From positions 16,712-80,711 of IMG/VR virus record IMGVR_UViG_3300025930_000141: DNA of 64,000 nucleotides; one strand, given 5' to 3'. The stretch is from a virus. The position numbers were made by a program, and so were the translations under genes. Below the pieces are notes generated by a model. The model was not told the origin of the DNA. It ran no database searches and worked only from the letters and a program-made list of their open reading frames with translations. Below are positions 17,974 to 34,544 of the stretch, one piece after another. The stretch's first letter is position 1; each line of letters begins with the position of its first letter.

Positions 17974-18683
17974 GCTGCTAACACCGCTTCCTGTGCTGGT
18001 TGCTTAACTTCATTGTCCATACCGCGCTTCCATGCGTACCAACCCCAGGCTGTGTTAGCGAGGAAGAATACGTACTGGAATGCTACCAGGAACAAACCGG
18101 CAGTGAAGTACGTGTAAATTGCAAACACGTTTACCAGCCCCCAGATGCCCCAGTTTTCCAACTTCTTGTTATCGAGCATGAACTGTGCCAAAATGGTACC
18201 GGCGAAGATTACCGAGTCCGTCCACGCCAGATGACCTCCGAGGGCGGTGGAAATTGCGACGATGACGAGGTAGCCCGCGAGTGCGACCGCAATTGATGCG
18301 GCCCACGAGGGGGCCGACATGCGGGTGACAGGCCGTGTGTCGGCATCTGACTTCCATCGAATCCAACCGTACACGAGATACACGGTGAGGAATGCGTTAA
18401 TGCCTGTTGATGCAAACAGCCCGAACTGGTAAAACAGCAGGCAGTAGGCGGCTGTCGAGACAGCGCCAATCGGGTAATTGATTCTACGCTCCATAACACA
18501 CAGAAACGTGCAGGAGTAGGAGGTGAATACAGCAAAAGCCTCAAGCCACGACAGGGTGGTAATCCAACCGACTGCCAGGCCAAGGCCATAGGAGAGCGCC
18601 GTGAGCGCCAATCCAATAACTACAGATTGAGCAATGTTTGTCATTGCGCCATGCTCACGACGCGGAATTGTAATAAATGACAT
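17970..18683 (-). CDS. pnuC: PnuC nicotinamide riboside transporter
   Basis: multi-TM; YGWIRW, AQFMLDNKKLENWGIW. Confidence 0.9.
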   Translation of the reverse strand: MSFITIPRREHGAMTNIAQSVVIGLALTALSYGLGLAVGWITTLSWLEAFAVFTSYSCTFLCVMERRINYPIGAVSTAAYCLLFYQFGLFASTGINAFLTVYLVYGWIRWKSDADTRPVTRMSAPSWAASIAVALAGYLVIVAISTALGGHLAWTDSVIFAGTILAQFMLDNKKLENWGIWGLVNVFAIYTYFTAGLFLVAFQYVFFLANTAWGWYAWKRGMDNEVKQPAQEAVLAA

Positions 18684-19897: not shown

Positions 19898-20072
19898 GGG
19901 TTGCCGTCTTTCCGGCTGTCAGGCTTCCTGGGCCAGTGCCTTATATTTGTATACCGGTTATGACCGTGGCCGGTTGCAGCATCACCACTCGCATCCCACC
20001 CGTTTGTTGCAGGTTTTACTCTTAAGCGATACCCGCTCACCGGCCAAAGCCTTGTCCGTGTGCTGCGTGACC

Positions 20073-20102
20073 ATTGTACACCGGGTGTACCGGCCCTGTC
20101 AA
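20073..20102 (-). promoter_or_regulatory. SigA-type promoter
   Basis: TTGACA-18-TACAAT. Confidence 0.75.
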
Positions 20103-20104
20103 CC

Positions 20105-20431
20105 TCAGATGTTTCTGACCTCACATGGGTCAGAGTCACCCGGACACCATAACTTTAAACCGTCAGCGCGCCATACGCCGGACACGGGCTTATAGTCTAC
20201 CTCGGCATATCCGACCGGAGTCAGATAACGGTAAATCAGTGTGTTGTCGGCAGGGCGTAGGTCCAACCACAAGACACCAATACAGCCGCAAACGGTATTG
20301 ACCTTAGCACGGGTCATGCCACCCTTAACGCTTACCCACTCGGCGTGGGTCATCATCTGTGGGTCCTTGGCCTGAGCCGGTGCGGGTAACAGAACAAACA
20401 ATGCGGCCAAAGCCGCTACAATCTTTTTCAA
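20105..20431 (-). CDS. small secreted protein
   Basis: signal peptide ending AQA; GMTRAKV..CGC, WC. Confidence 0.65.
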   Translation of the reverse strand: MKKIVAALAALFVLLPAPAQAKDPQMMTHAEWVSVKGGMTRAKVNTVCGCIGVLWLDLRPADNTLIYRYLTPVGYAEVDYKPVSGVWRADGLKLWCPGDSDPCEVRNI

Positions 20432-20622
20432 CTTAATCCTTCTCGATAGTACGAAGCCACATCAAACTGCTGTGACCACGTTAGTGGGTAACCGGTCCAA
20501 TTGAATGAATCATATACCTGGCCGTCTACGAATACTCTGTAAAGGTACCGGCGCGGGTACAGTTTAATCTCGTCCAGGTATATATCCACCTTCGTCCTCC
20601 CAAGTGTCGGTGTACTTTTCAC
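20428..20622 (-). CDS. hypothetical protein
   Basis: coupled ORF. Confidence 0.5.
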   Translation of the reverse strand: MKSTPTLGRTKVDIYLDEIKLYPRRYLYRVFVDGQVYDSFNWTGYPLTWSQQFDVASYYREGLS

Positions 20623-20720
20623 ATTCTAAACAAACATTGTTAATCACGATGTTGACAATATTGTGTGCGTCTTTATAAACCACATTACATGAAGGACACC
20701 GCATTACTACACACATGACG

Positions 20721-20795
20721 AGCCACCTATGGGATTCGAACCCATGACCTCAAACTTACCAAGTTTGCGCGCTAACCTAACTGTGCCAAGGCGGC
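20721..20795 (-). tRNA. tRNA-Thr(GGT)
   Basis: cloverleaf; loop TT-GGT-AA. Confidence 0.92.
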
Positions 20796-20855
20796 GGGTA
20801 GGGAGCGGTACGCTCTGCAAAGTTAGTGCAGTCTAACCACGCCCGCTTACCCCAG

Positions 20856-20926
20856 AGCCCCTAGCCGGGATTGAGCCGACTTCTCCTGTTTACAAGGCAG
20901 GTGCATCACCTTAATGCTTTAGGGGC
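20856..20926 (-). tRNA. tRNA-Thr(TGT)
   Basis: cloverleaf; loop CT-TGT-AA; atypical T-loop. Confidence 0.82.
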
Positions 20927-21029
20927 GAGTGGTGTGTTTTATGTTTCAATACCGGGCTGCTCCGTCACCAGTCCCTAATGAAACAAATGTTCACCGTCCA
21001 TAGCGGCTGGGGGTTGCGCCGCCACCACG

Positions 21030-21103
21030 AGCCGATACGGGGAATCGAACCCCGGCTATTCTACATTACGAAAGTAGTACCATACCATTTAGGAGTTATC
21101 GGC
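21030..21103 (-). tRNA. tRNA-Thr(CGT)
   Basis: GCCGATA/TATCGGC; loop TT-CGT-AA. Confidence 0.82.
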
Positions 21104-21138
21104 AGAGGTACCAGGATAGCAGGCCCGGTACCAGATTG

Positions 21139-21882
21139 TCAAATGAACTTAAGCAGTTCAGACCATGGGCCGTGGTCAGAAGAATTATCGTCTATGTCCA
21201 CGTAGGCCGCTATTACTTTAAGTCCCTTTAATACTGCACCGTCGATAAGGCGACTACCATGTGTACCGCGCGACGGTAGCCGGTCAACAGCAGACCACAC
21301 CAGTTTCCACATTGGGAACTTAACCTTGATTGCCGCGCGAGCCCAGCGGTGCTTGAAGTTAATGTTCCAGTCACCGGCCAAGATAGAGGCGTCAGTCTTG
21401 AAATGTGTCTTTAGTTGATTACTGCGTCGGCGCAGGTTGTTTGTAGCCTGATGCCAGGCGACCACTCGGTCGGTATGACGGTGGTGGGCCAGGTCGCCCT
21501 CTACTCCCGAAGGGAAGTGACAAACCGAAACCACTACGCGCTTACCAGACTCAAGGTGTTCCAGTACCGCGTTTTGTGCATACAGCGGAGACGACAGGTG
21601 TCCACCCAACTTGAACAGGTGATGAGACACTAAGTACGACTCGTGGAAGATGACCTTAAATACTGACTTGTCATAAACAATGGCAGAGTCATCTTTGAGT
21701 CCCTTGTCGCCAACCACAACACCAAAGCCGGGTACGGCCAGGGCATCCTCGCGGCCCTCGGTAGCCACCTCTGTAAGTGTGATAACTTGTGCGGTTTGAG
21801 CGTACTTGAGTACGGCTCGATGCAATGCCTGAATACTACCCTTGTAGAACCCAGACGAATGCGTGTGCTTAAATCTAATCAT
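21139..21882 (-). CDS. endonuclease/exonuclease/phosphatase (EEP) family protein
   Basis: TLTE, AGDWN, IDG, SSDH. Confidence 0.8.
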   Translation of the reverse strand: MIRFKHTHSSGFYKGSIQALHRAVLKYAQTAQVITLTEVATEGREDALAVPGFGVVVGDKGLKDDSAIVYDKSVFKVIFHESYLVSHHLFKLGGHLSSPLYAQNAVLEHLESGKRVVVSVCHFPSGVEGDLAHHRHTDRVVAWHQATNNLRRRSNQLKTHFKTDASILAGDWNINFKHRWARAAIKVKFPMWKLVWSAVDRLPSRGTHGSRLIDGAVLKGLKVIAAYVDIDDNSSDHGPWSELLKFI

Positions 21883-21901
21883 GTGCTCAGTATATCACGC
21901 T

Positions 21902-22165
21902 TTAGGAGTCAGCGCCACTAACGTCGGTGCTCTTGGGCCTGCGAGCAAACTTCTCCTGGCGCTTGTCACGGCGCTTCTGGGCAGCCTTGTCCTTGCGGCG
22001 CTGGTACTTGCGATGCAGAGCAAAGATGGTAAGCACGTTACCCTTTAATTCGGTGTCCCAGTCGCCGTACTCGCGGTACTCTTTTTGGAGTTCTCGCAGG
22101 TAGTTAAGGTCGTCACTGATGATGTGCTTATTGCGTGGCCTAGACAATTTCCTCTGCCTTTGCAA
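21902..22165 (-). CDS. basic hypothetical protein
   Basis: Arg/Lys-rich ORF; start uncertain. Confidence 0.5.
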   Translation of the reverse strand: MQRQRKLSRPRNKHIISDDLNYLRELQKEYREYGDWDTELKGNVLTIFALHRKYQRRKDKAAQKRRDKRQEKFARRPKSTDVSGADS

Positions 22166-22487
22166 TAGCCTTATCCATGACCGCGACTACCTCGTCTTCG
22201 GTGCGACCTGGGGCATCGTTCCAGTATGGAATGTTTAGCAGTTCGTCGGCACGCTTAAACTCGGGGTACTGCTCCTGAACAATTTCCTGAATAAACTGTG
22301 CGTACGGCATGGCCTCTTCACGAACGTAATCAAACTCTCCGGTTTCCTCACCCAGAGCCAAAGCAATGTGGCCGAGAGTACAATAACCATTTGTGTCTTC
22401 ATCATAATAGGCATCCGTGGTCCAGCGACCCGGAATGTTTGTGCGCATCTTGCGCAGTACACTTACATCAATCTTGTTATCGGACAT
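22140..22487 (-). CDS. hypothetical protein (common in actinophages)
   Basis: CTLG...WNDAPGRT..EVV; GAAAGGA RBS. Confidence 0.65.
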   Translation of the reverse strand: MSDNKIDVSVLRKMRTNIPGRWTTDAYYDEDTNGYCTLGHIALALGEETGEFDYVREEAMPYAQFIQEIVQEQYPEFKRADELLNIPYWNDAPGRTEDEVVAVMDKAIAKAEEIV

Positions 22488-22506
22488 TAACTTTCCTTTC
22501 GTAGAG

Positions 22507-22578
22507 AGTCCCCAGCGGGACTTGAACCCGCGACCGGCAATTTAGGAAATTGCTGTTCTGCCACTGAACTATGGGGAC
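22507..22578 (-). tRNA. tRNA-Arg(CCT)
   Basis: cloverleaf; loop TT-CCT-AA. Confidence 0.92.
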
Positions 22579-22579
22579 G

Positions 22580-22655
22580 TGCGCCAGATGGGAGTCGAAC
22601 CCACATGTATCCATTATACTTTCAACTGCTTCGGGGGCAGGGGTAATACTAGCGC
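22580..22655 (-). tRNA. atypical D-armless tRNA-Arg(CCG)-like
   Basis: GCGCTAG/CTGGCGC acceptor, CTGC-CCCCGAA-GCAG, long region with AATGG, canonical T-arm. Confidence 0.65.
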
Positions 22656-22656
22656 A

Positions 22657-23103
22657 TTATGGTGGAGGTATTTCAATACCCCGGTCTACGTTATGTCTGT
22701 ACTCAAGAAGTCGCATGTGATGATATGCCCAAAAGACCAATTGAATAATCGCGGGTATAATTTGGAACCAATACCCGTGTGTTGAGTATACCACGACAGC
22801 ATAGAACCACACAAGGTAGCCGAGCAGCGGTCCAGCGCTAGAAATGGGCCTGTAGCGCATCAATAAATTCACGATGGACAGAACCACCGCTGCAATTGCT
22901 GCGACGCCCCAGAGGCTCACAGCGGGCACCAGGGCTATGTCTGTGGTCAACTGGTAGAGCACGCTGGCCTGCACCGACGCGGTGCTGGTGAAAAACACAA
23001 AGGCTATACCCATGTTCAGCGTATATGCCAACATAAGGTATAGCCAAAGAGGGAAGCGTTCACCCTCGCTTCGGTAGATTAATCTTGGCAAATACTTTCT
23101 CAT
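22657..23103 (-). CDS. 4-TM membrane protein
   Basis: four hydrophobic segments. Confidence 0.7.
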   Translation of the reverse strand: MRKYLPRLIYRSEGERFPLWLYLMLAYTLNMGIAFVFFTSTASVQASVLYQLTTDIALVPAVSLWGVAAIAAVVLSIVNLLMRYRPISSAGPLLGYLVWFYAVVVYSTHGYWFQIIPAIIQLVFWAYHHMRLLEYRHNVDRGIEIPPP

Positions 23104-23175
23104 GTACTGATTTTACCACACTGTCCACAAAAAGCATTGAGTCTGCTACTCTATCCCAAAAGAAGTTAATCATCG

Positions 23176-23247
23176 AGGCACTTACCGGATTCGAACCGGT
23201 ATAAAGTAGGGTTGCAATCTACTGGATAGCCATTCTCCCAAAGCGCC
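23176..23247 (-). tRNA. tRNA-Cys(GCA)
   Basis: GGCGCTT/AAGTGCC U73; loop TT-GCA-AC. Confidence 0.9.
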
Positions 23248-23525
23248 ATAGACCGGGCGGGCTGACTCACGAATGCAAGAAGTAGGGTTGTTGCTAGCAC
23301 AGAGCCCACGGTACTTTCGGATAACCAGCCGGTACGCCGCACTATCACGTAGCGCCCGGTAAAGCCTATTTAATTTTAACGCCCAGTCTTTCGACGTTCT
23401 TATCGTTCTCTACACCGTCCTTACCGCGCTGACAGCGCGGCGAACAGTAAACTCTGTCTTCGACAATCCAAAGGTGAGTTGCAATCCTGCACTTGCATTT
23501 AGTACATTTCACATTGGGTTCATTT

Positions 23526-23759
23526 TTACGTGCCCTGTGGGCCACGCTTGCGAGCGCGTTGCCGCGCCTCGTATGGAGTCGGCTCCCCACGGTCTCGGTA
23601 TTGCTCGTTTACGAGCCACGCCTTATGGTTTGCCTCGATGTTTGCCTTTTTCCTGCGCTGTGCTGCTTCCCAGCACGCCTTACGCTTTGCTCTGCGGTTT
23701 ACGTTCATCGCACGCTTCGGCAAGTTCTTGCGCAGTTTGGCGTCGTTTTGTCCAGCCAT
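23526..23759 (-). CDS. small basic protein
   Basis: Arg/Lys-rich; AGGGG RBS. Confidence 0.55.
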   Translation of the reverse strand: MAGQNDAKLRKNLPKRAMNVNRRAKRKACWEAAQRRKKANIEANHKAWLVNEQYRDRGEPTPYEARQRARKRGPQGT

Positions 23760-23934
23760 GACTTTTAGTCACCCCCTTAAGGTTTACCTAATCGTCATGG
23801 CTTGCTCCTATGTTGTTCAAACTTGTCTCCTGTTATGGATATACCGGCCCCTACGGGTCCAACGCCACCCACCCTCGGTAGGACGAGGTTAAGCGTGAAG
23901 CGTTCGGTAGTGATAGCACTCCCGACCGGTATTG

Positions 23935-24008
23935 TGGAGGTAAAGGGATTTGAACCCTTGACTTCTAGTATGCCATACTAGCGTTCTACCTGGCTGAACT
24001 ATACCCCC
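23935..24008 (-). tRNA. tRNA-Ala(GGC)
   Basis: G3:U70 pair; loop AT-GGC-AT. Confidence 0.92.
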
Positions 24009-24102
24009 AGGGCACCCTTTGTTAAAGCAGGTCTGGCGACTGCACCCCGCGCGCAGGGTCACGGCTTCTCGGCCCTTGTACTTTGGGTCTCATCCATCAT
24101 TG

Positions 24103-24175
24103 TGGAGGATACCGGAATCGAACCGGTGACTTCTACCTTGCAAAAGTAGCACTCTACCTGCTGAGTTAATCCCCC
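24103..24175 (-). tRNA. tRNA-Ala(TGC)
   Basis: G3:U70 pair; loop TT-TGC-AA. Confidence 0.92.
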
Positions 24176-24193
24176 AGGATTATTTAGTTAGCG

Positions 24194-24264
24194 TGGCGTA
24201 CGAGAGATTTGAACTCTCAGAGTAGGGATTTACAGTCCCGCTCCCTCAACCAACGGTGTACGCC
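24194..24264 (-). tRNA. tRNA-Tyr(GTA), atypical D arm and short V arm
   Basis: GGCGTAC/GTACGCC; loop CT-GTA-AA. Confidence 0.75.
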
Positions 24265-24274
24265 GTGTGGTCCC

Positions 24275-24303
24275 ATTGTACAGGTTGGGACCGTACCTGT
24301 CAA
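24275..24303 (-). promoter_or_regulatory. SigA-type promoter
   Basis: TTGACA-17-TACAAT. Confidence 0.8.
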
Positions 24304-24578
24304 GCCTGTGTTATTGTGATTTGTAGGAAGTCGTTGGCGCTTCCCTCGACCGGCTTGTGGTCCTCGTTAAAGTGACCATTGATGTTTACTACCCAATCAT
24401 GGTCGGGCCAGTTACGACCAAAGACCATGGTTCTATCAAATAGGTCGTAAACCACTTCACTTGCTGCGTCGATTGCTCGTACCGCTGCCTCGTTGTCCTC
24501 GACATTTACCATGTCTTGGACCTCACCCGTGTGGCTGTCGCCAGTATTCTTTAATACTACCTTTGCTGAAAAACTCAT
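24300..24578 (-). CDS. hypothetical protein
   Basis: coupled to upstream lysin-like gene. Confidence 0.55.
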   Translation of the reverse strand: MSFSAKVVLKNTGDSHTGEVQDMVNVEDNEAAVRAIDAASEVVYDLFDRTMVFGRNWPDHDWVVNINGHFNEDHKPVEGSANDFLQITITQA

Positions 24579-25339
24579 TAGCCCGCCAATACAGCGTCAA
24601 TATAAGACCATACGTTGCGCGGTGTAGTCGTGCCCGCTGGTGTATAAAACTGTGGACGACCCTGGCTAATCCAACGGTCTGCTCCACCTAGGCCTAGATT
24701 ATAAGACGCTACCGCGTCGCCTAGAACGCCATAACGCTGGAACGCTTGGTCATTACCCTTGCTGTTCTTGAAGTGTGTTAATGCGTTGTTCATGTAATTG
24801 GTTACAAAGTCGAATGCAATCTTTGGTCGGAACCGCTCGATTGCATCTAAGTCCGGGTGCGAAGGACCATTGATTTGTGCTAGTCCTAGGTCTTCCGGGT
24901 CCACGAAGCCTACCGCGCCAGCGTCCCATGAGGACTCGTGACGGATAATACCAGAAACAACAACCGGGGTAAGCGGTGGCTTACCGCTGGCCTCGACCTC
25001 TGAGATAAGGTCGGGGTACAGCAATAGGAAAGAACTGTCTTCCCCAATGCCGCCCCAAGGCGTTACGAAGTCCTTATGCTTGTTCTGGAATGTTGTAACT
25101 GCATCGCTCGTGGCCTGGTCGAACTTACCAGTAACCTTAACCGTTCCCTTGCCAAGTCTACGGTTGAGTGCTCGTTGATATGCCTTAACTGCATGATGAA
25201 CAGCAAAGTTATCTTGATTTGTAGTTGGGTCTAGTTCACCAGACCCGAGATAGTAATACGGTCCAGGCTTGGTTGACTTATAAGCCTTGGTACCGCCTGC
25301 GCCGGAATTATTCCAAGCGCCTCTTCCATGAGTTGCCAT
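24578..25339 (-). CDS. peptidoglycan-binding domain + lytic transglycosylase (endolysin-like)
   Basis: VKAYQRALN..TGKFDQAT..AVTTFQ; HESS, GLAQIN, ASYNLG. Confidence 0.8.
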   Translation of the reverse strand: MATHGRGAWNNSGAGGTKAYKSTKPGPYYYLGSGELDPTTNQDNFAVHHAVKAYQRALNRRLGKGTVKVTGKFDQATSDAVTTFQNKHKDFVTPWGGIGEDSSFLLLYPDLISEVEASGKPPLTPVVVSGIIRHESSWDAGAVGFVDPEDLGLAQINGPSHPDLDAIERFRPKIAFDFVTNYMNNALTHFKNSKGNDQAFQRYGVLGDAVASYNLGLGGADRWISQGRPQFYTPAGTTTPRNVWSYIDAVLAG

Positions 25340-25361
25340 AATATTATGTTCCCTTCGGGAG

Positions 25362-25431
25362 TGCTGATGCCGGGAATTGAACCCAGACCAAGTGGTTATG
25401 AGTCACTTCGGCTCGCCGTCGCCTCACCAGC
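25362..25431 (-). tRNA. tRNA-Met/Ile2(CAT), reduced D arm
   Basis: GCTGGTG/CATCAGC; loop CT-CAT-AA. Confidence 0.75.
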
Positions 25432-25523
25432 AATGCTACAGTTCTTACTAACGCACCGCTCCGCTCCGCTGTAGCACCGTGCGGAATCCCATGCGAATGG
25501 GCTTAAGGTACCCTATCCCATTG

Positions 25524-25596
25524 TGCGGTAGACGGGACTCGGACCCGCAACTTCCACGTTGGCAACGTGACACTCTACCAATTGAGTTACTACCAC
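25524..25596 (-). tRNA. tRNA-Gly(GCC)
   Basis: cloverleaf; loop TT-GCC-AA; A73, T-loop TCCGAGT. Confidence 0.82.
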
Positions 25597-25724
25597 TGGT
25601 GGGGCTTGGTTCTTTTATTTATGCAGGTTAAGAAACACCCCGGCAATAAGCCCTGCGTTATCCGTACTTCGTCTTAAGCCGTTTCTGGACCTTCACGAGT
25701 AAAGTTTCGAACCTTTACTGCTTG
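25597..25724 (-). ncRNA. pseudoknotted spacer RNA, copy A
   Basis: shares motifs and covarying helices with 25801-25927; ends ACCA. Confidence 0.7.
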
Positions 25725-25800
25725 TGACGTGGACGGGAATCGAACCCGCAATGGCAAGAGATTGAAAGTCTCCGCTGCAACCGCCAGTGGACACCACGCC
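25725..25800 (-). tRNA. tRNA-Glu(TTC), atypical D arm
   Basis: GGCGTGG/CCACGTC; loop CT-TTC-AA. Confidence 0.78.
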
Positions 25801-25927
25801 TGGTCCGAGGGTCAACACTTTGGATTAGACTGGAAAGTCCCTCGGGCGCTAAAACCAGTGTTACGGGGCCACGTCTTAAGCCGCTACTACCGTCTTCACG
25901 AACAAAGTTTCGAACCTTTGCTGCTTG
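25801..25927 (-). ncRNA. pseudoknotted spacer RNA, copy B
   Basis: see copy A. Confidence 0.7.
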
Positions 25928-26001
25928 TAGCCCCTACGGGATTCGAACCCGTCATCACACAGATTGAGAGTCTGGTATCCTTGCCACAAGACCCAGAGGC
26001 C
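25928..26001 (-). tRNA. tRNA-Glu(CTC)
   Basis: cloverleaf; loop CT-CTC-AA. Confidence 0.85.
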
Positions 26002-26012
26002 GTATGTCACCA

Positions 26013-26041
26013 ATTATACAGGCTGGTGACCCACCTGTCAA
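26013..26041 (-). promoter_or_regulatory. SigA-type promoter
   Basis: TTGACA-17-TATAAT. Confidence 0.85.
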
Positions 26042-26046
26042 GCCTG

Positions 26047-26451
26047 TCAGGGGACGCTGTTGCCGTAGCACTTATCAGGGTCACACCACAACTTATCAAA
26101 TACCCGCCACGGTGCCCCAGCACTAAACTGACGATACGTCAGGATAACGTTTACGTGAGGCGGCGCGCCGTTGTATTGGACATTCTTGAATGCGTGTCCG
26201 TTGTTATTCCAAGAAGCAATCTTTTCACCAGAGCAGTCACAAATGTTTTCTGCTTGAGTTTGGGTTGCTCCACTGGTGGAGTCGTCTCCCGGACACAACT
26301 GGCCTGCCTGAGCATCAATCTCAACAGTACACAAACCCGTGTACTCGCTCTTGGTCCAGGTACCCACAAAAGCGTGGGCCGGGGAGACGGTTGAAAGCAT
26401 TAGCGTCAGACCAGACAACAGCGTGGCGGTCAATAATAGCATTTTCTTCAT
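26047..26451 (-). CDS. secreted Cys-containing protein
   Basis: signal peptide ending AHA; ICDCSG, LWCD. Confidence 0.65.
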   Translation of the reverse strand: MKKMLLLTATLLSGLTLMLSTVSPAHAFVGTWTKSEYTGLCTVEIDAQAGQLCPGDDSTSGATQTQAENICDCSGEKIASWNNNGHAFKNVQYNGAPPHVNVILTYRQFSAGAPWRVFDKLWCDPDKCYGNSVP

Positions 26452-26461
26452 ATTATTCCTT

Positions 26462-27001
26462 TCAGGTCAACCTGGCACGAACTACGGTGCGATAGTCTGT
26501 GTGAACAAACCTCGACGCACATGTAATAAGTGTTAATGTTTCGTGCCTGTTGTTTAATACAGATACATTGGTGTAGTATACGTTGAACTTGTTTGTAACT
26601 TTAAACGTGTATTGGGTTCCACATTTTTCAATGACTACCCGGTCGCCGGGTGTCAATTCTGGGAGCCGCGCAAAGGGCTCTCCGTGCGTTACAACGTGTG
26701 CAGTGAGCGCATAGTTCCCCCTGCCCACCGGGCCGGTATGTGGGAAGTGCCCCACGACCCCTGAGTTTAGCACCTTTTCACTGACGCCATTCTCAATCGG
26801 CATTACGTAATGCCCCCAGGATGGAACCCGAATTAGTGCGCCGGGGCACTTGTGCAGGGCTACGCCCTGTCTAATCTTTGAAACCTCAGCCTTTTGATGT
26901 TGTTCAATGGCTACCGGGTCAGACCCGGTATGGGGCATTCCGAAGAATACAACCATACCGAGCCCGACCACAATCAGTGTCAGTGCGAATAACTTACGCA
27001 C
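26462..27001 (-). CDS. sortase (class E-like)
   Basis: N-terminal TM; GHFP, LTAHVVTHGEPF, TLITC, catalytic Arg; start approximate. Confidence 0.9.
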   Translation of the reverse strand: MRKLFALTLIVVGLGMVVFFGMPHTGSDPVAIEQHQKAEVSKIRQGVALHKCPGALIRVPSWGHYVMPIENGVSEKVLNSGVVGHFPHTGPVGRGNYALTAHVVTHGEPFARLPELTPGDRVVIEKCGTQYTFKVTNKFNVYYTNVSVLNNRHETLTLITCASRFVHTDYRTVVRARLT

Positions 27002-27944
27002 GCTTACGAGACAATAGCAGGAGACCGGAGCCAGCAATTAGCAGACCCAGACCAACAAACAAAGACGTGTTGGCGGTATCTGACAAACCAGCATTCGGTA
27101 GGGACCGTGCTACAGGTGGTGCAAGTGCAGCGGGCGGCTTATGCCCACTTGGGTTATGCGGGGTATTTACCGGAGGCTTGGGCGACGGGTTATCTACCGG
27201 TGGCGTAGGCGTCGGTGTAGGAGTCGGTGTGTCGGTCGTGCAGGTCACACCGTCCGTCCAAGCATAGAAGGTAACCTCGTCAGAGGCTTCCTGGTCAGTT
27301 ACAGTTTCATCAAATGCTTCCTGGTCAACGATAACTTCGTCATATGCCTCCTGGTCTACAACCGTTTCATCATATGCATCTTGGCCCGGAGTAATCAATT
27401 CTCCGTGCTCGCGGTGGAACCAAGAAGAGTTACCGCTATTTCCATTACTGGAATTAAACGTGCCGTAAGTATCTTGGTCAGGACCGCCGTTTTCGTGAGG
27501 CCCCTGCCATGTGCCACGCTCATCATTGGGGAATTCAGGGGTGTAATCTTGTGGTCCATGAGTATAATTCGGGGACCAATTCCACCACAGGTCGGGGCCA
27601 TAAACAGCCGGTACCGCGTCGTGATGGATAACATGTGTTACCGCGTCGTGATGTACTGTATGCGTCACAGCGTCGTGATGTACAACGTGGGTGACTGCTG
27701 GGTGATGAACTGTCAAAACCCACGAGCGTGTAGTATCACACTCGTTGTCGGTGACAAAGGTAGAAACCTCGTCCTCGATTGCACCTTGCGGAACGTCGTT
27801 AGGGCTTGCAACCACAATTGGGTTACTAGCAGACTCACCGGGGACACCGGTTGCGTTGGCGGTGCTGAGCATTGCGCCCGCACCCAAAACAATACCGGCT
27901 ACCATAAGTACGGTCGCCAGTATTGTCGATAAAATCTTTGTCAT
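26994..27944 (-). CDS. LPXTG-type cell-wall-anchored surface protein
   Basis: signal peptide; HHDAVTH and DQEAYDE repeats; PT linker; LPNAG + TM + RKRA. Confidence 0.85.
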   Translation of the reverse strand: MTKILSTILATVLMVAGIVLGAGAMLSTANATGVPGESASNPIVVASPNDVPQGAIEDEVSTFVTDNECDTTRSWVLTVHHPAVTHVVHHDAVTHTVHHDAVTHVIHHDAVPAVYGPDLWWNWSPNYTHGPQDYTPEFPNDERGTWQGPHENGGPDQDTYGTFNSSNGNSGNSSWFHREHGELITPGQDAYDETVVDQEAYDEVIVDQEAFDETVTDQEASDEVTFYAWTDGVTCTTDTPTPTPTPTPPVDNPSPKPPVNTPHNPSGHKPPAALAPPVARSLPNAGLSDTANTSLFVGLGLLIAGSGLLLLSRKRA

Positions 27945-27976
27945 TTATTTACTTTCTGTTGTGTGCCGTTAAAGCG

Positions 27977-28049
27977 TGACCCCTCTCGGACTTGAACCGA
28001 GGACTCTTGGTTTAAAAGACCAGCACTCTACCAACTGAGTTAAGGGGTC
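27977..28049 (-). tRNA. tRNA-Lys(TTT)
   Basis: cloverleaf; loop CT-TTT-AA. Confidence 0.92.
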
Positions 28050-28077
28050 CTAGCGAGCCGGTCGGCTCGCGTCTTTT

Positions 28078-28197
28078 CTAAATGATGCTCGTGACATAGC
28101 AACTGCCGCCCAGATTGGCAATCCAATCATTCCGGCGACGAGTGTAACGCTCTTTCATGTAGTTATTCATTTCTACATTATAATTTGCGTATCCCAT
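28078..28197 (-). pseudogene. truncated HNH-endonuclease-like remnant
   Basis: YMKERYTRRRNDWIANLGGSC resembles HNH N-terminus but stops at 39 aa. Confidence 0.45.
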
Positions 28198-28198
28198 G

Positions 28199-28271
28199 TA
28201 CCCCTACCGAGGCTTGAACTCGGAACTTTCAGTTTAAGAGACTGCTACTCTACCAATTGAGTTATAGGGGC
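28199..28271 (-). tRNA. tRNA-Lys(CTT)
   Basis: cloverleaf; loop CT-CTT-AA. Confidence 0.92.
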
Positions 28272-28375
28272 AAAGATTAAAGGCTTTGCAAGGTGACTTT
28301 CTGGTTTAACCGCCAGAGCACCTTGGCGGGGAACAGCCGCCTGGTCCTTGTTCAAGGGAACATATTTTGCCTAAG

Positions 28376-28458
28376 TGACCATGGTGGGGTTCGAACCCAC
28401 AGTACCCATTCGGGACAGGTTAAGGGCCTGTTAGACTAGCCAATTGTCAAACACGGTC
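28376..28458 (-). tRNA. class II-body tRNA with CTT anticodon
   Basis: GACCGTG/CATGGTC; ACAGG-CCCTTAA-CCTGT; V arm CCC-GAAT-GGG. Confidence 0.7.
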
Positions 28459-28459
28459 A

Positions 28460-28535
28460 TGGGGTGACTAACGGGAATCGAACCCGCATATACTTGCACC
28501 ACAAGCAAGCGCATTACCAGTCTGCCATAGCCACC
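28460..28535 (-). tRNA. tRNA-His(GTG)
   Basis: G-1:C73, encoded CCA; loop TT-GTG-GT. Confidence 0.93.
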
Positions 28536-28821
28536 ATGGCCCGCCGAAGCGGGCATTTAATTAGAACCTACTTGCAATAGCAAGAATGATTACCACAATA
28601 AGGATAATCAATAGGATACCCCAAATACTCACGTACCTCACCACCTACCCTCAAGGGTAACAGGTGAGCGTTCAGTTGTCAAGCCGATGTTTTGGGCTTT
28701 CACAACCACAAGCATATACCCCATAAGTGTCAGACCACATGAGGTCGGGACATTTATCGTGGTCGTCGTCTAGGCAAAATACACAATGGGGCATTTCACC
28801 TTCATATAATTCATACATACG

Positions 28822-28894
28822 CGCCCCCGGCAGGATTCGAACCCGCGACCACTAGAGTAGAAAACTAGCACTCTGTCCACTGAGTTACGAGGGC
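28822..28894 (-). tRNA. tRNA-Arg(TCT)
   Basis: cloverleaf; loop TT-TCT-AC. Confidence 0.9.
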
Positions 28895-28895
28895 A

Positions 28896-29081
28896 TTACC
28901 AGCCAGCCCACTCTGCGCCCCCCCATTTGACCCAATCAATGTTTCCAGCCATTATGTCATCAACACAAGGCTTACATGCATCATAGGGAACGCGCTCGTT
29001 TTGTTTGTCTACCATTTCCAGTACACCGTCCGCTGGACGGGAATTGCAAATGTTACACCACTTAATTGCTCCTGGCATCAT
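28896..29081 (-). CDS. small Zn-finger-like protein
   Basis: CNIC...CKPC. Confidence 0.55.
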   Translation of the reverse strand: MMPGAIKWCNICNSRPADGVLEMVDKQNERVPYDACKPCVDDIMAGNIDWVKWGGAEWAGW

Positions 29082-29256
29082 TTTCTTATTTGTCTGTATT
29101 CGACTTCTGTTACTTCTACCGCTCCCTCGGTGCCGGTGGCGAATACGTCTCGCAAGGCGTCCAGAGCGTCGTCGTCGTCAAATGCTTCAATCTCGCACCA
29201 AACGGAAACCTTAAACTTGTACTTTTCCATGCTTCAATTGTAGCATAGATTGGGTC

Positions 29257-29631
29257 TTAGAGAAGTTCTCGACGCAAATCGTGGAACTTGTCTGCGTCAC
29301 CGTTGGCAATGGCGGTAAGCATGTCAATGGCCTGCTCGTTATTTGTGTCGTAAAACAACGACGACCATTCGTACCGGTCCAGACCAAGATAATCTCCCGC
29401 AGCGTAGTCAACGGCACTGAGAACAATTTGACCTTCCTGCTGCCATTGAACCGTACCGGCTACGCACATGGTCGTGTCACACAGATTTACCTGACCAGTG
29501 AAGTGTCGCAAATCTTCTACAGATGCGTCTTCCCAACTAACGAAATTGTTCTGGTCGTGACGCTCTGGGTACATACGAAGGTAATCGAGAGCCTGCTGGG
29601 CAACGCGCTTGGTGTTTTCTGTTACGTCCAT
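29257..29631 (-). CDS. hypothetical protein
   Basis: HDQ...CDTTMCVAG motif typical of actinophage proteins. Confidence 0.65.
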   Translation of the reverse strand: MDVTENTKRVAQQALDYLRMYPERHDQNNFVSWEDASVEDLRHFTGQVNLCDTTMCVAGTVQWQQEGQIVLSAVDYAAGDYLGLDRYEWSSLFYDTNNEQAIDMLTAIANGDADKFHDLRRELL

Positions 29632-29718
29632 TACTTACTCCTAGATAGGCCGAACCAACGTGGTCCGTGTTTGTAACAATACTTTTCTGGATATGCGATA
29701 AAGATGTTAATGTTCATG

Positions 29719-29791
29719 TACCCTCGACAGGATTCGAACCTGCGACCTCTTCGTCCGTAGCGAAGCGTTCTATCCACTGAACTACGAGGGC
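29719..29791 (-). tRNA. tRNA-Arg(ACG)
   Basis: cloverleaf; loop CT-ACG-GA. Confidence 0.93.
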
Positions 29792-29795
29792 ATGT

Positions 29796-29901
29796 ATTCG
29801 GATATGGTACGAAGTCGATAGGACACCAGTCCCAAATAGGCAGGAATCGAACCTGGCCTCGCTAACTTTGGCAACGATAAACGACTATCATCGACCCGAA
29901 T
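29796..29901 (-). ncRNA. Y-RNA-like copy 2 (with T-arm)
   Basis: CGGGTCGA...CGTTTATC...CAGG-TTCGATT-CCTG...CATATCCG. Confidence 0.75.
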
Positions 29902-29912
29902 TAAGTATTAAA

Positions 29913-30029
29913 TTAGCAGGAATGGCAAGGCCAGTTTGTGTCTACCCTGGCCTCAGATGGAGCGGCGACAGCGCCGACCAGTCCAAGTGCCATTACAGCG
30001 GCGGCAAGCGCGCCAGCAATTCTCTTCAT
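29913..30029 (-). CDS. 38-aa secreted peptide precursor
   Basis: GGAGG RBS; signal peptide + RVDTNWPCHSC. Confidence 0.7.
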   Translation of the reverse strand: MKRIAGALAAAVMALGLVGAVAAPSEARVDTNWPCHSC

Positions 30030-30050
30030 TGCAACCTCCCGTGATAAGGT

Positions 30051-30156
30051 TGGGCATAATTGTAATCGGAATTTAAGTCTACTTTGCGCTTGGAGGCGCA
30101 CGTGCTATTTACACCAATAGGGAAGTCCCCATAGATAACCGATATACTTCGGCCCA
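30051..30156 (-). ncRNA. Y-RNA-like copy 3
   Basis: TGGGCCGA...CGGTTATC...CCGAT...TATGCCCA. Confidence 0.75.
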
Positions 30157-30157
30157 G

Positions 30158-30228
30158 AGCGGGTACGGAGAATCGAACTCCGGTAATCTGATTGGAAGTC
30201 AGGAGCACTACCATTGTGCTATACCCGC
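30158..30228 (-). tRNA. tRNA-Gly(TCC)
   Basis: GCGGGTA/TACCCGC U73; loop CT-TCC-AA. Confidence 0.93.
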
Positions 30229-30229
30229 G

Positions 30230-30301
30230 TAGCGCCACTGGGACTTGGACCCAGTTTTCTCGGGCTTCAACCGAGCGCATATCCATACATGCTCTGACGC
30301 C
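30230..30301 (-). tRNA. tRNA-Phe(GAA)
   Basis: loop TT-GAA-GC; T-loop TCCAAGT. Confidence 0.82.
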
Positions 30302-30350
30302 TTGGCTGTACCCGGCCCCACATTTGCTCGATGAGGCCGGGTACAATGCA

Positions 30351-30379
30351 ATTGTAACAGGTCAGACTGAGCGTGTCAA
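30351..30379 (-). promoter_or_regulatory. SigA-type promoter
   Basis: TTGACA-17-TACAAT. Confidence 0.8.
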
Positions 30380-30593
30380 GTCTACGACCCACTCTTCTAA
30401 CTTGCTGTCAATGTAATAAAGAACTTGGTCCTTTATCTCAAATTTACCGTCACGATGGTCGTACAGGTCGCCCTGTCTGACACCCCAATAAACCGGGACC
30501 CTCACAAAAGTGCTCCAATTACTAGTGCACACAAGAGCAATAGCACAAACAGGAATAATCCGAAGTCTGCTAGAAACTCAATTATGTTGTCTA

Positions 30594-31589
30594 TCATGCC
30601 TTGATAAGCAGTCTCGTGTTTGGCATCAGGTTACGGTTAATCGAGGTTGACTGAACGAAAATGTCGTAGTCCGGGTTGTAATCGGGCTTTACCCGTACCG
30701 TGTGGCTTGGTAGGCCAATAAGGTCACGAGCATTCTGACCACCATAAGCCTTACCGGTAGACTTCTCTACTACGATAATAGACTTCTGTGGCTGAATGTT
30801 TTCAGTCTTTGTCAACTGGTAGTAACCCATACCCTTGGAGTAGGCGTAACCCAGGCGACGAACAAAGTCGTCAATGCGGGTCTTGGAGTCTACGTTGTAG
30901 AACTCATAACCATCCAAAGGCTGTAGGTTCTTAACCGTTGCCTTGTTTACCGCATCTGCGCCTGTCGAGAAGACGGCGCGCGAGCCACGTACACCGCTGG
31001 CACGGTTTGTCATGAAGTTGTCTGTGGCCGTACGGATGGTGCTGACGGCCTCAACAATTCCAGTGGCACTAGTGGTGTCCCAAATTGCTACGGAGCCTGC
31101 ATCGGCCCCCAGACGGCTCACATAGGCCTGTCCTGACCTGTCAGGCACCAGCCAACCGATGGTCCAGTTGTCTGCTGCGCGGTTTAGCATGTTTGCCAGG
31201 TCGTGAGCGCTGTGACGCGAGCGGTTTTCCTGTCCGTCGGTTAGGACGAATGTCAGGAATGCGTGGTCACCATAAAGTTGGCTGGTCGTAGCCAAGTCCT
31301 GCTGGCTCTTGATGGTTGCGTCAATAAGGGCGGTAAGTCCTCGGACGTTGTAAAGGTCACTAATCGACGGTAGACGCATTACGTCCATATCGAAGATTAG
31401 GCACTCTACGTTATCGTGGAACAGATATACGCTGACTCGCGTCTCTTGTTGCAATTCTTCGCTTCTCAGAGCGAGGTAACGAATCTGTTCGTCGGCTACC
31501 TGGATTAACTTGCTTCTGTGGCTCGTCATGCTGGAACTACCGTCCAGCACGAGCGCCACGTGATTAATTAGTCGTTGTGCTTTGTGCAT
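30594..31589 (-). CDS. vWA (MIDAS) domain protein
   Basis: VLDGSSSM, TALIDA, LTDGQEN. Confidence 0.85.
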   Translation of the reverse strand: MHKAQRLINHVALVLDGSSSMTSHRSKLIQVADEQIRYLALRSEELQQETRVSVYLFHDNVECLIFDMDVMRLPSISDLYNVRGLTALIDATIKSQQDLATTSQLYGDHAFLTFVLTDGQENRSRHSAHDLANMLNRAADNWTIGWLVPDRSGQAYVSRLGADAGSVAIWDTTSATGIVEAVSTIRTATDNFMTNRASGVRGSRAVFSTGADAVNKATVKNLQPLDGYEFYNVDSKTRIDDFVRRLGYAYSKGMGYYQLTKTENIQPQKSIIVVEKSTGKAYGGQNARDLIGLPSHTVRVKPDYNPDYDIFVQSTSINRNLMPNTRLLIKA

Positions 31590-31681
31590 TAATTTCTCCT
31601 ATGGCCCCTTCGACAAGAGGAACATTACTAGAACGAGCGCCACTGTCAGCAGATATGCGACAACAGCAATTTCCGTGCCGC

Positions 31682-31903
31682 TCAAAACTTGAGCGCAACA
31701 CCAACAATTACTGCTAGTACACACAGAATGGGGAAGAACGGAATGAAACTGGCTAGAAACAGAAACAGTAACGAACCGCCACCCGCAACCATAAGGCCGG
31801 TGCCGACCCCTGACTTTGATGACTTCTCGACTTCATAAGAGTCTCGCTTGGTAATTGACATTGCTTTCCTAACTATCGAAGTTGCATTGTTTTGTACACT
31901 CAT
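31682..31903 (-). CDS. small membrane protein
   Basis: two TM segments; start uncertain. Confidence 0.5.
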   Translation of the reverse strand: MSVQNNATSIVRKAMSITKRDSYEVEKSSKSGVGTGLMVAGGGSLLFLFLASFIPFFPILCVLAVIVGVALKF

Positions 31904-31950
31904 TATACCAGAAGAGGGGCACTTTTTTCAAGTGCCCCTCTCTGGATTTG

Positions 31951-33549
31951 TCAGACTCGACCAGCGAAGAAGTTAGCCATTACGCTAGGCGTAGATGAGT
32001 CGAAACCTACTACGTCGAGCATACCGGCGTCCTTCGGGTCTGCCACGGTGAAGCCTGTTGAGACCATACCTACAGAAACTAGGCGGGCGTTGCGGCCACG
32101 AGAGTCGCGGTACTGCTTAAGTGCGACATTTGGCTTAACGCTACCGGCCCACGTCTCGTTGTCGGTGTAAACCGCGAAAGCATCAACATCAATACCCTTG
32201 CTCTTGGCGTAAACCATTGGCTGGGCAATGTCGGTGCCACCGAACGACAAACCGCTGACCTTACGGAGCACGGTTTCGAACGAATCGGCGTCACCGATGT
32301 TCAGGGTTACCAACGAAGTCGTGAAGGCGTTAACCACAACGTAAGGCTCGGTGCGCACGGTGACCATAGCCATGAGCGCAGCGGCCTCTCGACAGTTAAG
32401 ACCAACGAGGCCAGCAGGGGCGTACATGGTCATAGAACCTGAAACGTCAAGGCTTACCATGGTTGGAACACCGGCAGGCTCGACGGTCTTGAAGGACTCA
32501 TAGAATCCAGACTCAAGAGCGCCCAAAACCTTAGCGTTCATACCACGGTGCTGCTTACCGAGGATACCGCGAGCGTTGGCGTACTGGACTGGGTGTACCC
32601 GGCCCTTTACGATACGCTCGCCGTCAGCAAGAGCAATAGCCACGTCGCCTGCGAACTTAACGTCCTTGAAAGCACCAATCTCTTCGAACCGCTTGAGGTT
32701 ACGAATGAGAGCGGTCTGACCTAGAGCGCCGTTGTAGAAAAGCGTCTTCCATACGTCAGGGTCCTTAAGGAACTGGGTAGGAATGGTTTCCCAAGGAAGA
32801 GCCTTGTACGTGTTAAGAACGCGCACAACTTCCTTGGCGCTTGTGGTGCGCTGCATGGCCTTGAAACCGTCGATAATTTCCGGCGTGTTTTCAATCTCGG
32901 CACGGTCGGCCTTGATAGGCCCGCCAAGAACAAAGTCACCAATGCTAACGTTTACGCCCTTAGGGTGAGCAAGACGGAATACGTCGCGGTGCGTCCAACC
33001 GTCGCGCTGGCGGTACTTGACTACCTGATAAGCCAACTGGTTGTCGTCCTTAGACGTGTACCAGTCTGCAAGGCTACCGCGCTTTGCGCGACCAAGGCCA
33101 CCCAAGTCCTTAAGGTACTGTGCGTACTCGAAAAGGTGGGTACCGGTGCGGGCAACCTTAGGGACAAGCGCCCGAACGGCAGCCTTGTTCTCAGCGTTGT
33201 GCATGAGCAAGGCTAGCACGAAAAGGCTAGGGCTGTTCTTAGGTGCGCGGTTTTCGTCAGCGACAGCGCGGAGCGTGTCGATAACCAACTGCTCGTCAGA
33301 CTTGATAAGTGCGAGGACGAACTTAGCGTTGTCCTTGGTCAACTTACGCTCTGAGACGTAGTAGGTACCGCCGTCCGTACCAAGAATCAGGAATCGCTCA
33401 AGGCGAACCTGCGGCGTAACACCGAATACAAAACCTCCGGCGTTGTTACGTACCTCGTCGGTACGTCCAGGGGTACGCTTGTTCTGAGGCGTACCGTTGT
33501 AACGAGTGTTTGCGATTTCACCCGTTAAGTTCTTTAATGCGTTCTTCAT
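31951..33549 (-). CDS. rsr: Ro60/TROVE RNA-binding protein
   Basis: NNAGGFVF, RFLILGTDGGTYY, KYRQRDGWTHRD, LPWE, ALIRNL, RVHP, vWA DVSGSM, TDNETW, GFDS. Confidence 0.95.
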   Translation of the reverse strand: MKNALKNLTGEIANTRYNGTPQNKRTPGRTDEVRNNAGGFVFGVTPQVRLERFLILGTDGGTYYVSERKLTKDNAKFVLALIKSDEQLVIDTLRAVADENRAPKNSPSLFVLALLMHNAENKAAVRALVPKVARTGTHLFEYAQYLKDLGGLGRAKRGSLADWYTSKDDNQLAYQVVKYRQRDGWTHRDVFRLAHPKGVNVSIGDFVLGGPIKADRAEIENTPEIIDGFKAMQRTTSAKEVVRVLNTYKALPWETIPTQFLKDPDVWKTLFYNGALGQTALIRNLKRFEEIGAFKDVKFAGDVAIALADGERIVKGRVHPVQYANARGILGKQHRGMNAKVLGALESGFYESFKTVEPAGVPTMVSLDVSGSMTMYAPAGLVGLNCREAAALMAMVTVRTEPYVVVNAFTTSLVTLNIGDADSFETVLRKVSGLSFGGTDIAQPMVYAKSKGIDVDAFAVYTDNETWAGSVKPNVALKQYRDSRGRNARLVSVGMVSTGFTVADPKDAGMLDVVGFDSSTPSVMANFFAGRV

Positions 33550-33596
33550 TTTGTTTCCTTTCGTCCCGGTCGTTTCGGGAATGTTATATTAACGAC

Positions 33597-33686
33597 TGGC
33601 GGCTACTGTAGGATTCGAACCCACGGAAGGTTTTACCCTTCGCTTGTTTTCAAGACAAGTGCAATCGCCCACTCTGCCAAGTAGCC
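33597..33686 (-). tRNA. tRNA-Ser(TGA)
   Basis: long V arm, G73-CCA; loop CT-TGA-AA. Confidence 0.93.
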
Positions 33687-33690
33687 GAGT

Positions 33691-33833
33691 ATGCTGGATA
33701 TAAGTGCGAAATCGGGGTTTAACGGCGGCTTTACCATTTGCCTATACCCCACATGAATTGGGTGGGGCAACAGGATTCGAACCTGCATTCACCGGCTCCA
33801 AAGGCGATAACCGATATTCAATCGACCCAGCAT
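33691..33833 (-). ncRNA. yrlA: YrlA-type Y RNA (copy 4) with full tRNA-like domain
   Basis: closing stem ATGCTGG/CCAGCAT; T-arm, closed acceptor hairpin, D-arm TAGGCAAATGGTAAAGCC; adjacent to Ro60. Confidence 0.85.
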
Positions 33834-33842
33834 TAAGTTGTG

Positions 33843-33958
33843 TACCGAATATGTTATTGCAACGGAGTTTTTACTATATAGCATACAGCACACCGACAGG
33901 GCCGGTGTATTGGATTTGAACCAATGATTTCCGATAACCGTTAACATTCGACTCGGTA
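33843..33958 (-). ncRNA. Y-RNA-like copy 5 (T-arm + acceptor hairpin)
   Basis: TACCGAGTCGA...CGGTTATC...ATTGG-TTCAAAT-CCAAT...CATATTCGGTA. Confidence 0.8.
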
Positions 33959-33961
33959 TAG

Positions 33962-34035
33962 TAGCGGAGACGGGATTTGAACCCGCGTTGTCAGGATTAT
34001 GAGCCCTGTGTTTAACCGAACTAAACTACTCCGCG
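33962..34035 (-). tRNA. initiator tRNA-fMet(CAT)
   Basis: C1 unpaired, GGG in anticodon stem, loop CT-CAT-AA. Confidence 0.88.
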
Positions 34036-34037
34036 AG

Positions 34038-34110: not shown

Positions 34111-34114
34111 ATGG

Positions 34115-34225: not shown

Positions 34226-34235
34226 TTTAGTTTTG

Positions 34236-34309: not shown

Positions 34310-34312
34310 TTG

Positions 34313-34464: not shown

Positions 34465-34544
34465 TGGTAGGGCAGACAGGAGTTGAACCTGCGTGTCACC
34501 AGTTACCCTTTCTACTCGTTATCAGCGAGAGGGGATACTGCCCT
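34465..34544 (-). tRNA. atypical D-armless tRNA-Ile(GAT)-like
   Basis: AGGGCAG/CTGCCCT-A-CCA; CTCG-CTGATAA-CGAG; AACTGG in variable region; canonical T-arm. Confidence 0.7.

Follow-up and report, generated by a model that had tools for sequence, protein, structure and literature searches.

A mostly phage-borne family of predicted non-cloverleaf tRNAs with isoleucine and arginine anticodons

According to a 2024 paper, all known bacterial transfer RNAs (tRNAs) are cloverleaves (PMC11551756), and the authors of one quoted paper had to evolve E. coli before a non-canonical tRNA became usable. The closest described departures from the standard plan are the D-armless tRNAs of mitochondria, the permuted tRNA genes of red algae together with the tRNA-like domain of YrlA, and the allo-tRNAs. 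Here we compare with these systems two genes in the minus-strand tRNA array of a soil phage, gene A with the arginine anticodon CCG and gene B with the isoleucine anticodon GAU. Both lie in a stretch of 64,000 nucleotides (nt), positions 16,712 to 80,711 of IMG/VR record IMGVR_UViG_3300025930_000141, which we call the window; it is part of an 80.7-kb viral contig with a CheckV completeness of 63%. Judging from covariation among relatives, the secondary structure of both genes is almost certainly rewired, with the D-stem kept as a long-range helix around the anticodon arm. We further consider it probable, from sequence comparison, that A and B are working elongator tRNAs, Arg(CCG) and Ile(GAU), of a widespread and mostly phage-borne non-cloverleaf family; our confidence is lower for A alone.

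The preliminary description of this locus had allowed for the class having been published already. Full-text literature searches, which do not reach subscription journals, gave no description of the rewired layout, and a term search did not find it in a 2020 review of non-canonical tRNAs or in a 2026 paper on 4-base-pair (bp) anticodon stems.

The rewired secondary structure

The tRNA array of the window comprises 30 ARAGORN calls and six further Rfam tRNA matches, and neither A nor B is among the ARAGORN calls. With the Rfam tRNA model RF00005, whose gathering score is 29 bits, A scored 24.8 bits (below) and B 31.1 bits (just above), while the ordinary tRNAs of the window scored 31-71 bits. 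The minus-strand sequence nonetheless bears out the tRNA-Arg(CCG)-like element that the preliminary description had placed at 22580-22655, and the second copy of the architecture noted there is indeed present as gene B. The two genes and their parts are as follows.

22655..22580, minus strand: gene A, predicted rewired tRNA-Arg with anticodon CCG; 76 nt including discriminator A, CCA not encoded.
22643..22645, minus strand: 5' strand (UAC) of the long-range D-stem of A, standard positions 23-25; partner GUA at 22617-22619.
22632..22634, minus strand: anticodon CCG of A in the loop CCCCGAA, with an unusual C33.
22617..22619, minus strand: 3' strand (GUA) of the long-range D-stem of A, standard positions 10-12; preceded by the GAAA linker at 22620-22623.
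22605..22616, minus strand: D-loop-like junction of A, UAAUGGAUACAU, read as U13, A14, A15, U, G18, G19, A20, U, A21, C, A, U48.
34544..34468, minus strand: gene B, predicted rewired tRNA-Ile with anticodon GAU; 77 nt to discriminator A (34468), then an encoded CCA at 34465-34467.
34532..34534, minus strand: 5' strand (CCC) of the long-range D-stem of B; partner GGG at 34506-34508.
34521..34523, minus strand: anticodon GAU of B in the standard loop CUGAUAA, with C32, U33, A37 and A38.
34506..34508, minus strand: 3' strand (GGG) of the long-range D-stem of B; preceded by the GAAA linker at 34509-34512.
34493..34505, minus strand: D-loop-like junction of B, UAACUGGUGACAC, with A14, A15, G18, G19, U20, A21 and C48.

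Written as RNA and split into its parts, gene A reads GCGCUAG-UAUUACCC-CUGC-CCCCGAA-GCAG-UUGAAAGUAUAAUGGAUACAU-GUGGG-UUCGACU-CCCAU-CUGGCGC-A. In both genes, a 7-bp acceptor stem is followed by eight bases, a 4-bp stem with a 7-nt loop, and about 21 bases that hold GAAA and UAAYGG; the standard T-arm, the 3' acceptor strand and discriminator A come next. The D hairpin (stem 10-13/22-25) is absent, and the gap from the acceptor stem to the anticodon stem is only 8 nt. The standard arms (7-bp acceptor stem, 5-bp T-stem with UUCRANY loop, 7-nt anticodon loop with U33 and a purine at 37) are complete in B, and A differs only by C33. The acceptor stem and T-arm of A had been called perfect; both are there, but not strictly perfect, as the acceptor stem contains a U5.G68 wobble and the T-stem opens with a G.U pair.

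The D-arm, by contrast, had been described as missing, and covariation in homologs corrects this: the stem is retained, with its two strands flanking the anticodon arm. The base triplet that follows U8-A9-U always pairs with the triplet that follows GAAA, and the resulting 3-bp helix surrounds the anticodon arm. Among the first six sequences, this helix appears as UAC/GUA, CCC/GGG, CCG/CGG, CUC/GAG and ACC/GGU; it is 100% paired, with both-sided changes at all three pairs. A flanking U22.U13 is found next to the helix in both A and B and in 79 of the 82 family sequences. When 35 diverse members were aligned with MAFFT independently of any structure model, RNAalifold predicted the same structure. 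The helix was paired in 35/35 members with no broken pair, and all three pairs covaried, with 6-13 double changes per pair. Shifting the pairing partners by 1-3 columns lowered the pairing from 98% to 36-45%. We also calculated the mutual information over all column pairs of 89 unique 77-nt members. The top ranks went to the 16 pairs that vary in the four model helices, among them the long-range helix pair 12:38 in third place; three T-stem pairs, which are invariant or G-U-only, cannot score in such a scan.

A single-sequence minimum-energy fold of A draws a different picture, a variable-arm hairpin (GUAU-AAUGG-AUAC), and a similar hairpin, GUAA-YUGG-UUAC, is possible in many of the Ile members. 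The genes would then be D-armless tRNAs with a long variable arm, like class II or mitochondrial tRNAs, and would have no long-range D-stem. In the 35 diverse members, however, this hairpin is 63.6% paired, with one both-sided change in 140 cells, and its first column covaries instead with column 11 of the 100%-paired long-range helix. On these pair counts across the family, the variable-arm or class II reading was rejected as very improbable.

We built a covariance model, R1, of the rewired structure from six sequences (from the window and the phages Mildred21, Yaboi and Magritte). R1 gave A 89.9 bits and B 94.6 bits, and no ordinary tRNA of the window more than 28 bits. A covariance-model search, of the kind that the preliminary description had proposed, recovers the family at 65-95 bits, well above ordinary tRNAs.

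The rewiring can be put into the standard numbering of tRNAs. From U8 A9 the chain continues as U22 N23 N24 N25 C26 Y27; from GAAA it continues as N10 N11 N12 U13 A14 R15 (N) Y G18 G19 N20 N A21, and A21 is followed by C, A, Y48 and the T-stem. The order along the chain is [1-9][22-45][AAA][10-21][46-76], so two adjacent blocks of the cloverleaf are swapped. What is usually the 5' half of the D-stem, together with the D-loop, has moved into the variable loop, and the D-stem and the anticodon stem form one long arm. The predicted secondary structure is a three-way junction, not a four-way one, in which the D-loop-like strand (A14, R15, G18, G19, N20, A21) serves as the junction leading into the T-arm.

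In ordinary tRNAs, tertiary contacts connect positions 8-14-21, 9-12-23, 45-10-25, 46-13-22 and 15-48. Because of these contacts, the three new chain joints (9 to 22, 45 to 10 and 21 to 46) would connect residues that are neighbours in the L shape. The tertiary signals of an ordinary tRNA core are retained. U8 and A14 do not vary among the first six sequences, and GG and the UUCRANY T-loop are conserved across the family. Positions 15 and 48, whose pairing is outside R1, covary as R15:Y48 (A-U 62, G-C 16, A-C 3 and A-A 1; n=82) and are 97% paired on the alignment A3; A15 and U48 of gene A agree with this pair. The elbow signals of the preliminary description are therefore present, and the contact of GG with the T-loop itself is a prediction. 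The RNA would reach an L shape via U8-A14, R15-Y48 and G18/G19 with the T-loop.

The GAAA linker followed by UA-R-(N)-Y-GG-N-N-A-C-A-Y into the T-stem is matched exactly in A and B, and the DNA motif GAAA-N3-TAA-(N)-YGG-N2-ACA-Y-G-N2-GGTTC has exactly 2 occurrences in the window and 0 in 100 shuffles. The absence of matches in the shuffles speaks against chance look-alikes. The low scores with standard tools might also point to degenerate tRNA pseudogenes, but at least 117 unique sequences, drawn from unrelated groups of phages, conserve the structure with compensating changes. A further version of this doubt is that the transcripts are cut and re-joined into the ordinary order, for which one can cite the phage polynucleotide-kinase-like open reading frame (ORF) at 34761-35165 and the RNA ligase encoded by relatives. 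On the other side, it is in the encoded order that linkers (GAAA, CAY) and lengths are conserved, and a swap of two adjacent blocks cannot be undone by circularisation; no RNA re-ordering pathway of the block-swap kind is known. We regard pseudogenes, look-alikes and re-joining together as extremely unlikely. The proposal of a rearranged tRNA class has held up in this respect, as homologs preserve the arrangement in at least 117 unique sequences.

Amino-acid identity and likely codon role

The anticodons of all 117 unique members belong to Ile (UAU 65, GAU 20, CAU 3) or Arg (UCU 12, ACG 7, UCG 5, CCU 2, CCG 2, GCG 1), a restriction that may come partly from the common descent of what the collecting pattern reaches. 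Their anticodon loops look like those of translating tRNAs, with C32 in 115, U33 in 114 and A37 in 117 members, and CCA is encoded in 24 of the 117. The base after GG follows the anticodon class: it is U in 61/64 Ile genes and A in 15/16 Arg genes. Both genes of the window fit this rule, gene A having GG-A with CCG and gene B GG-U with GAU. In the mutual-information scan, the strongest signal outside the helices connected the base after GG with anticodon position 35; R15:Y48 came next, and then position 35 with the discriminator. The ordinary tRNAs of the window show the same bases, with GG-A in Arg(UCU) and Arg(ACG) and GG-U in Ile(UAU). A20 is a major identity element of arginyl-tRNA synthetase (ArgRS) in E. 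coli.

The contig carries no ordinary Ile(GAU) or Arg(CCG) gene at its 63% completeness, so that B is its sole predicted reader of AUU/AUC and A its sole CCG anticodon. AUU and AUC account for 86% of the 709 Ile codons and CGG for 15% of the 738 Arg codons, in DNA of 51% G+C. Similar gaps are filled in other phages. Magritte has 26 ordinary tRNAs, none of them for Ile, and its rewired Ile(GAU) lies in an unannotated gap. In tikkala, a complete crAss-like phage, ordinary tRNAs number 23, Ile(UAU) among them, and the rewired Ile(GAU) lies in a 90-nt unannotated gap. Mildred21 has a single ordinary Arg tRNA, CCU; its rewired genes add UCG and ACG, and UCU comes from a more divergent copy.

These observations are consistent with the following scheme. 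Processing of the polycistronic array would release the RNA, which the isoleucyl-tRNA synthetase (IleRS) or ArgRS of the host would charge and the ribosome would use. B would read AUU and AUC, and A would be the cognate reader of CGG; the ordinary tRNAs on the contig supply neither anticodon. One base separates the 3' end of A from an ordinary tRNA-Arg(CCU) at 22506-22578, a spacing that matches the expectation for processing from such an array.

A rewired fold need not imply a role as translation adaptor. The RNAs could instead be tRNA mimics, acting as decoys for tRNA-cutting defence enzymes of the host, as partners of the phage Ro60 protein, or as other regulators. In favour of this, a Ro60 protein (TROVE and vWA domains) is encoded at 31951-33549 within the tRNA array, a YrlA (RF02553) match overlaps A, and A has C33. 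The YrlA match is weak, however, its 23.3 bits being far under the threshold of 69, and the complete crAss-like genomes of tikkala and cr130_1 carry the family without a TROVE gene. Since the base after GG tracks the anticodon class, a simple mimic, which would need no class-specific bases, fits poorly; nor would it need the class-tracking discriminator, A37 in 117/117 members or the encoded CCA of 24. Moreover, the family genes plug anticodon gaps in otherwise near-complete tRNA sets. We consider mimicry improbable overall, and the more specific reading as a Y RNA was rejected from the YrlA score and the Ro60-free carriers.

A narrower concern is that the family works while A is a weakened or decaying copy, with the loop CCCCGAA lacking U33. 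U33 is present in 114/117 unique members, the homolog of A in Mildred21 carries a normal loop (CUUCGAA), and the Rfam score of A is under threshold. Against decay, all four helices of A are intact, and A holds the only CCG anticodon on the contig. Its D-stem UAC/GUA is unique in the set, which means that both strands changed while the pairing was kept. In addition, C33 is tolerated in some eukaryotic initiator tRNAs. We give decay of A a small chance.

Taking A and B as working tRNAs therefore remains our preferred reading, and several points should be counted on the other side. The letters GAAA, TA, GG, ACAYG and GGTTC were fixed in the collecting pattern, so their conservation in the alignments A3 and A4 is partly by construction; A3 and A4 were also fitted to the model. 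Gene B combines A15 with C48, a departure from R15:Y48 seen in 3 of the 82 sequences. Gene A has C33, U33 being absent in only 3/117 members, and may work poorly or be specialised. The ordinary Arg(CCU) of the window has GG-C, and the base after GG may be inessential for the host ArgRS. Finally, the incompleteness of the contig bears on the counts of missing tRNAs, and a rewired gene need not be alone in reading its codons, since an ordinary Ile(GAU) is present in Mildred21 as well.

Spread of the family and other features of the window

By BLAST against GenBank phages, A has homologs in the Mildred21/Yaboi group of Streptomyces phages, and B has homologs in about 40 phages of this group and in Microbacterium phage Magritte. 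Altogether, the carriers include about 77 Streptomyces phage records, Magritte, the crAss-like tikkala, cr130_1, bajarodcaudo virus 1 and many uncultured viral contigs. A pattern scan of IMG/VR gave at least 119 loci, and all 80 of the 80 loci examined had a full-length R1 match of 65-95 bits. We also scanned one genome per species (185,579 species). Of the 113 pattern matches, 80 loci were examined; 32 hold true members, and the remainder are chance pattern matches. These loci gave 36 R1 matches of at least 42.5 bits (four loci with two) and one more at 34.3 bits. The true members are mostly on contigs of metagenome-assembled genomes, and the isolates examined, such as Chryseolinea sp. H1M3-3 and Achromobacter anxifer, carry the family in tRNA arrays.

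The preliminary description had expected standard finders to miss or mis-call such genes. This agrees with the silence of ARAGORN and with GenBank, where the family gene is unannotated almost everywhere and otherwise labelled tRNA-Phe (Mildred21) or tRNA-Leu (EGole); the divergent Mildred21 copy is labelled tRNA-OTHER. As to the locus itself, 22 rhizosphere metagenome DNA runs contain the window or part of it, and no RNA run is among the listed holders. Contigs from four of these runs over 20000-35999 showed no letter differences within A or B, a result that does not bear on expression or selection.

Two divergent rewired Arg(UCU) genes occur at 18447-18523 of the Magritte stretch and at 26380-26454 of the Mildred21 stretch (the tRNA-OTHER copy). 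Their R1 scores are 36 and 44 bits, respectively, and their long-range helices are shifted or contain wobble pairs, which hints at a superfamily wider than the pattern reaches. In the cr130_1 stretch, a rewired Ile(UAU) at 2494-2571 lies about 1 kb from a tRNA with the amber-reading anticodon CUA (3575-3648). The latter is the only ARAGORN call in the 5-kb stretch examined and is annotated as tRNA-Gln.

The tRNA array of the window holds further unusual members, all on the minus strand. A 71-nt tRNA-Tyr(GUA) at 24194-24264, missed by ARAGORN and scored 31.2 bits by Rfam, appears to be a second non-cloverleaf design. A 13-nt GG-bearing single strand follows its acceptor stem, and a candidate helix GGAG/CUCU encloses the anticodon arm and runs straight into the T-arm, without a variable loop. 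A copy about 90% identical, annotated as tRNA-Tyr, is present in Rhodococcus phages Dorin and Trina; between Dorin and the window there are compensating changes in the acceptor and anticodon stems, and the enclosing helix is invariant. Three other tRNAs found by Rfam and missed by ARAGORN, at 20856-20926, 21030-21103 and 25725-25800, have loops that read as Thr(UGU), Thr(CGU) and Glu(UUC), and show weak or odd D-stems, or A8/C54. The tRNA-Lys(CUU) called by ARAGORN at 28375-28458 (84 nt) abuts tRNA-His, scores only 41 bits with Rfam and may carry an insertion.

Among the proteins, the window also encodes Ro60, DnaE, RecA, DnaB, primase and Cas4-like genes. The Ro60 homolog (TROVE and Ro60 vWA domains) is on the minus strand inside the tRNA array, as in Mildred21 and Magritte. 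The minus-strand ORF at 34761-35165, of 134 amino acids and beside tRNA-Pro, matches a phage polynucleotide-kinase family (phrog_415, E 1e-10), and relatives encode both RNA ligase and polynucleotide kinase, which suggests a tRNA repair set. No conserved protein partner was found next to A: the abutting ORF (22657-23103) matches nothing in Pfam or PHROG and does not resemble the HNH endonuclease adjoining the homolog of A in Mildred21.

Implications and comparison with known systems

If the RNAs are charged and used, bacterial translation already employs a natural tRNA of different chain topology. This would bear on what synthetases, RNase P, EF-Tu and the ribosome need from the tRNA core, as well as on the origin of new tRNA folds and the design of orthogonal tRNAs. 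For annotation, phage tRNA sets are under-counted, with Ile and Arg seeming to be missing when they are present. Culturable carriers exist among Streptomyces, Microbacterium and Bacteroides phages, so direct testing is possible. More tentatively, the rewired core may be an adaptation that keeps recognition by IleRS, ArgRS, EF-Tu and the ribosome and removes the D-arm surface used by tRNA-directed defence enzymes, toxins and turnover factors of the host. We regard this idea as rather doubtful; if it were true, the phages would keep decoding Ile and Arg codons while the host tRNAs are under attack, and the family would offer a ready-made, naturally orthogonal tRNA scaffold.

Ordinary class I tRNA-Arg and tRNA-Ile (RF00005), such as Arg(ACG) at 29718-29791 and Ile(UAU) at 10011-10086 of the window, share many features with the family. 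Common to both are the 7-bp acceptor stem, the 5-bp T-stem and UUCRANY loop, the 7-nt anticodon loop with C32, U33 and A37, the elements U8, A14, R15:Y48, G18 and G19, GG-A in Arg and GG-U in Ile, the length of 76-77 nt, and the location in tRNA arrays. Unlike ordinary tRNAs, the family has no D hairpin; positions 10-21 come after 45 and not after 9, and the secondary structure is a three-way junction. Its anticodon stem has 4 Watson-Crick pairs and a conserved U27.U43 mismatch, and its GAAA linker is invariant.

The D-armless mitochondrial tRNAs, for example tRNA-Ser of mammalian and nematode mitochondria (PMC7609411), resemble the family in having a three-way junction, with no D hairpin separating the acceptor stem from the anticodon stem. 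They differ in being shortened, in having lost the contact between D-loop and T-loop, and in relying on adapted mitochondrial factors. The family, by contrast, is of full length (76-77 nt), has a covarying equivalent of the D-stem and a GG-bearing equivalent of the D-loop, and belongs to phages of bacteria. Parts of a tRNA are likewise encoded in non-standard order in the permuted genes of red algae and in the tRNA-like domain of the bacterial Y RNA YrlA (RF02553). Those cases are circular permutations, and the mature tRNA of the red-algal genes is an ordinary cloverleaf, whereas the family has an internal swap of two blocks, which is not a circular permutation. Finally, the allo-tRNAs with 8/4 or 9/3 acceptor/T-stems (PMC5389517) are, like the family, natural non-standard tRNAs of bacteria or phages that came from sequence mining. 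They keep the order of the four arms and alter the stem lengths; the family keeps the 7/5 stems and alters the order of the chain.
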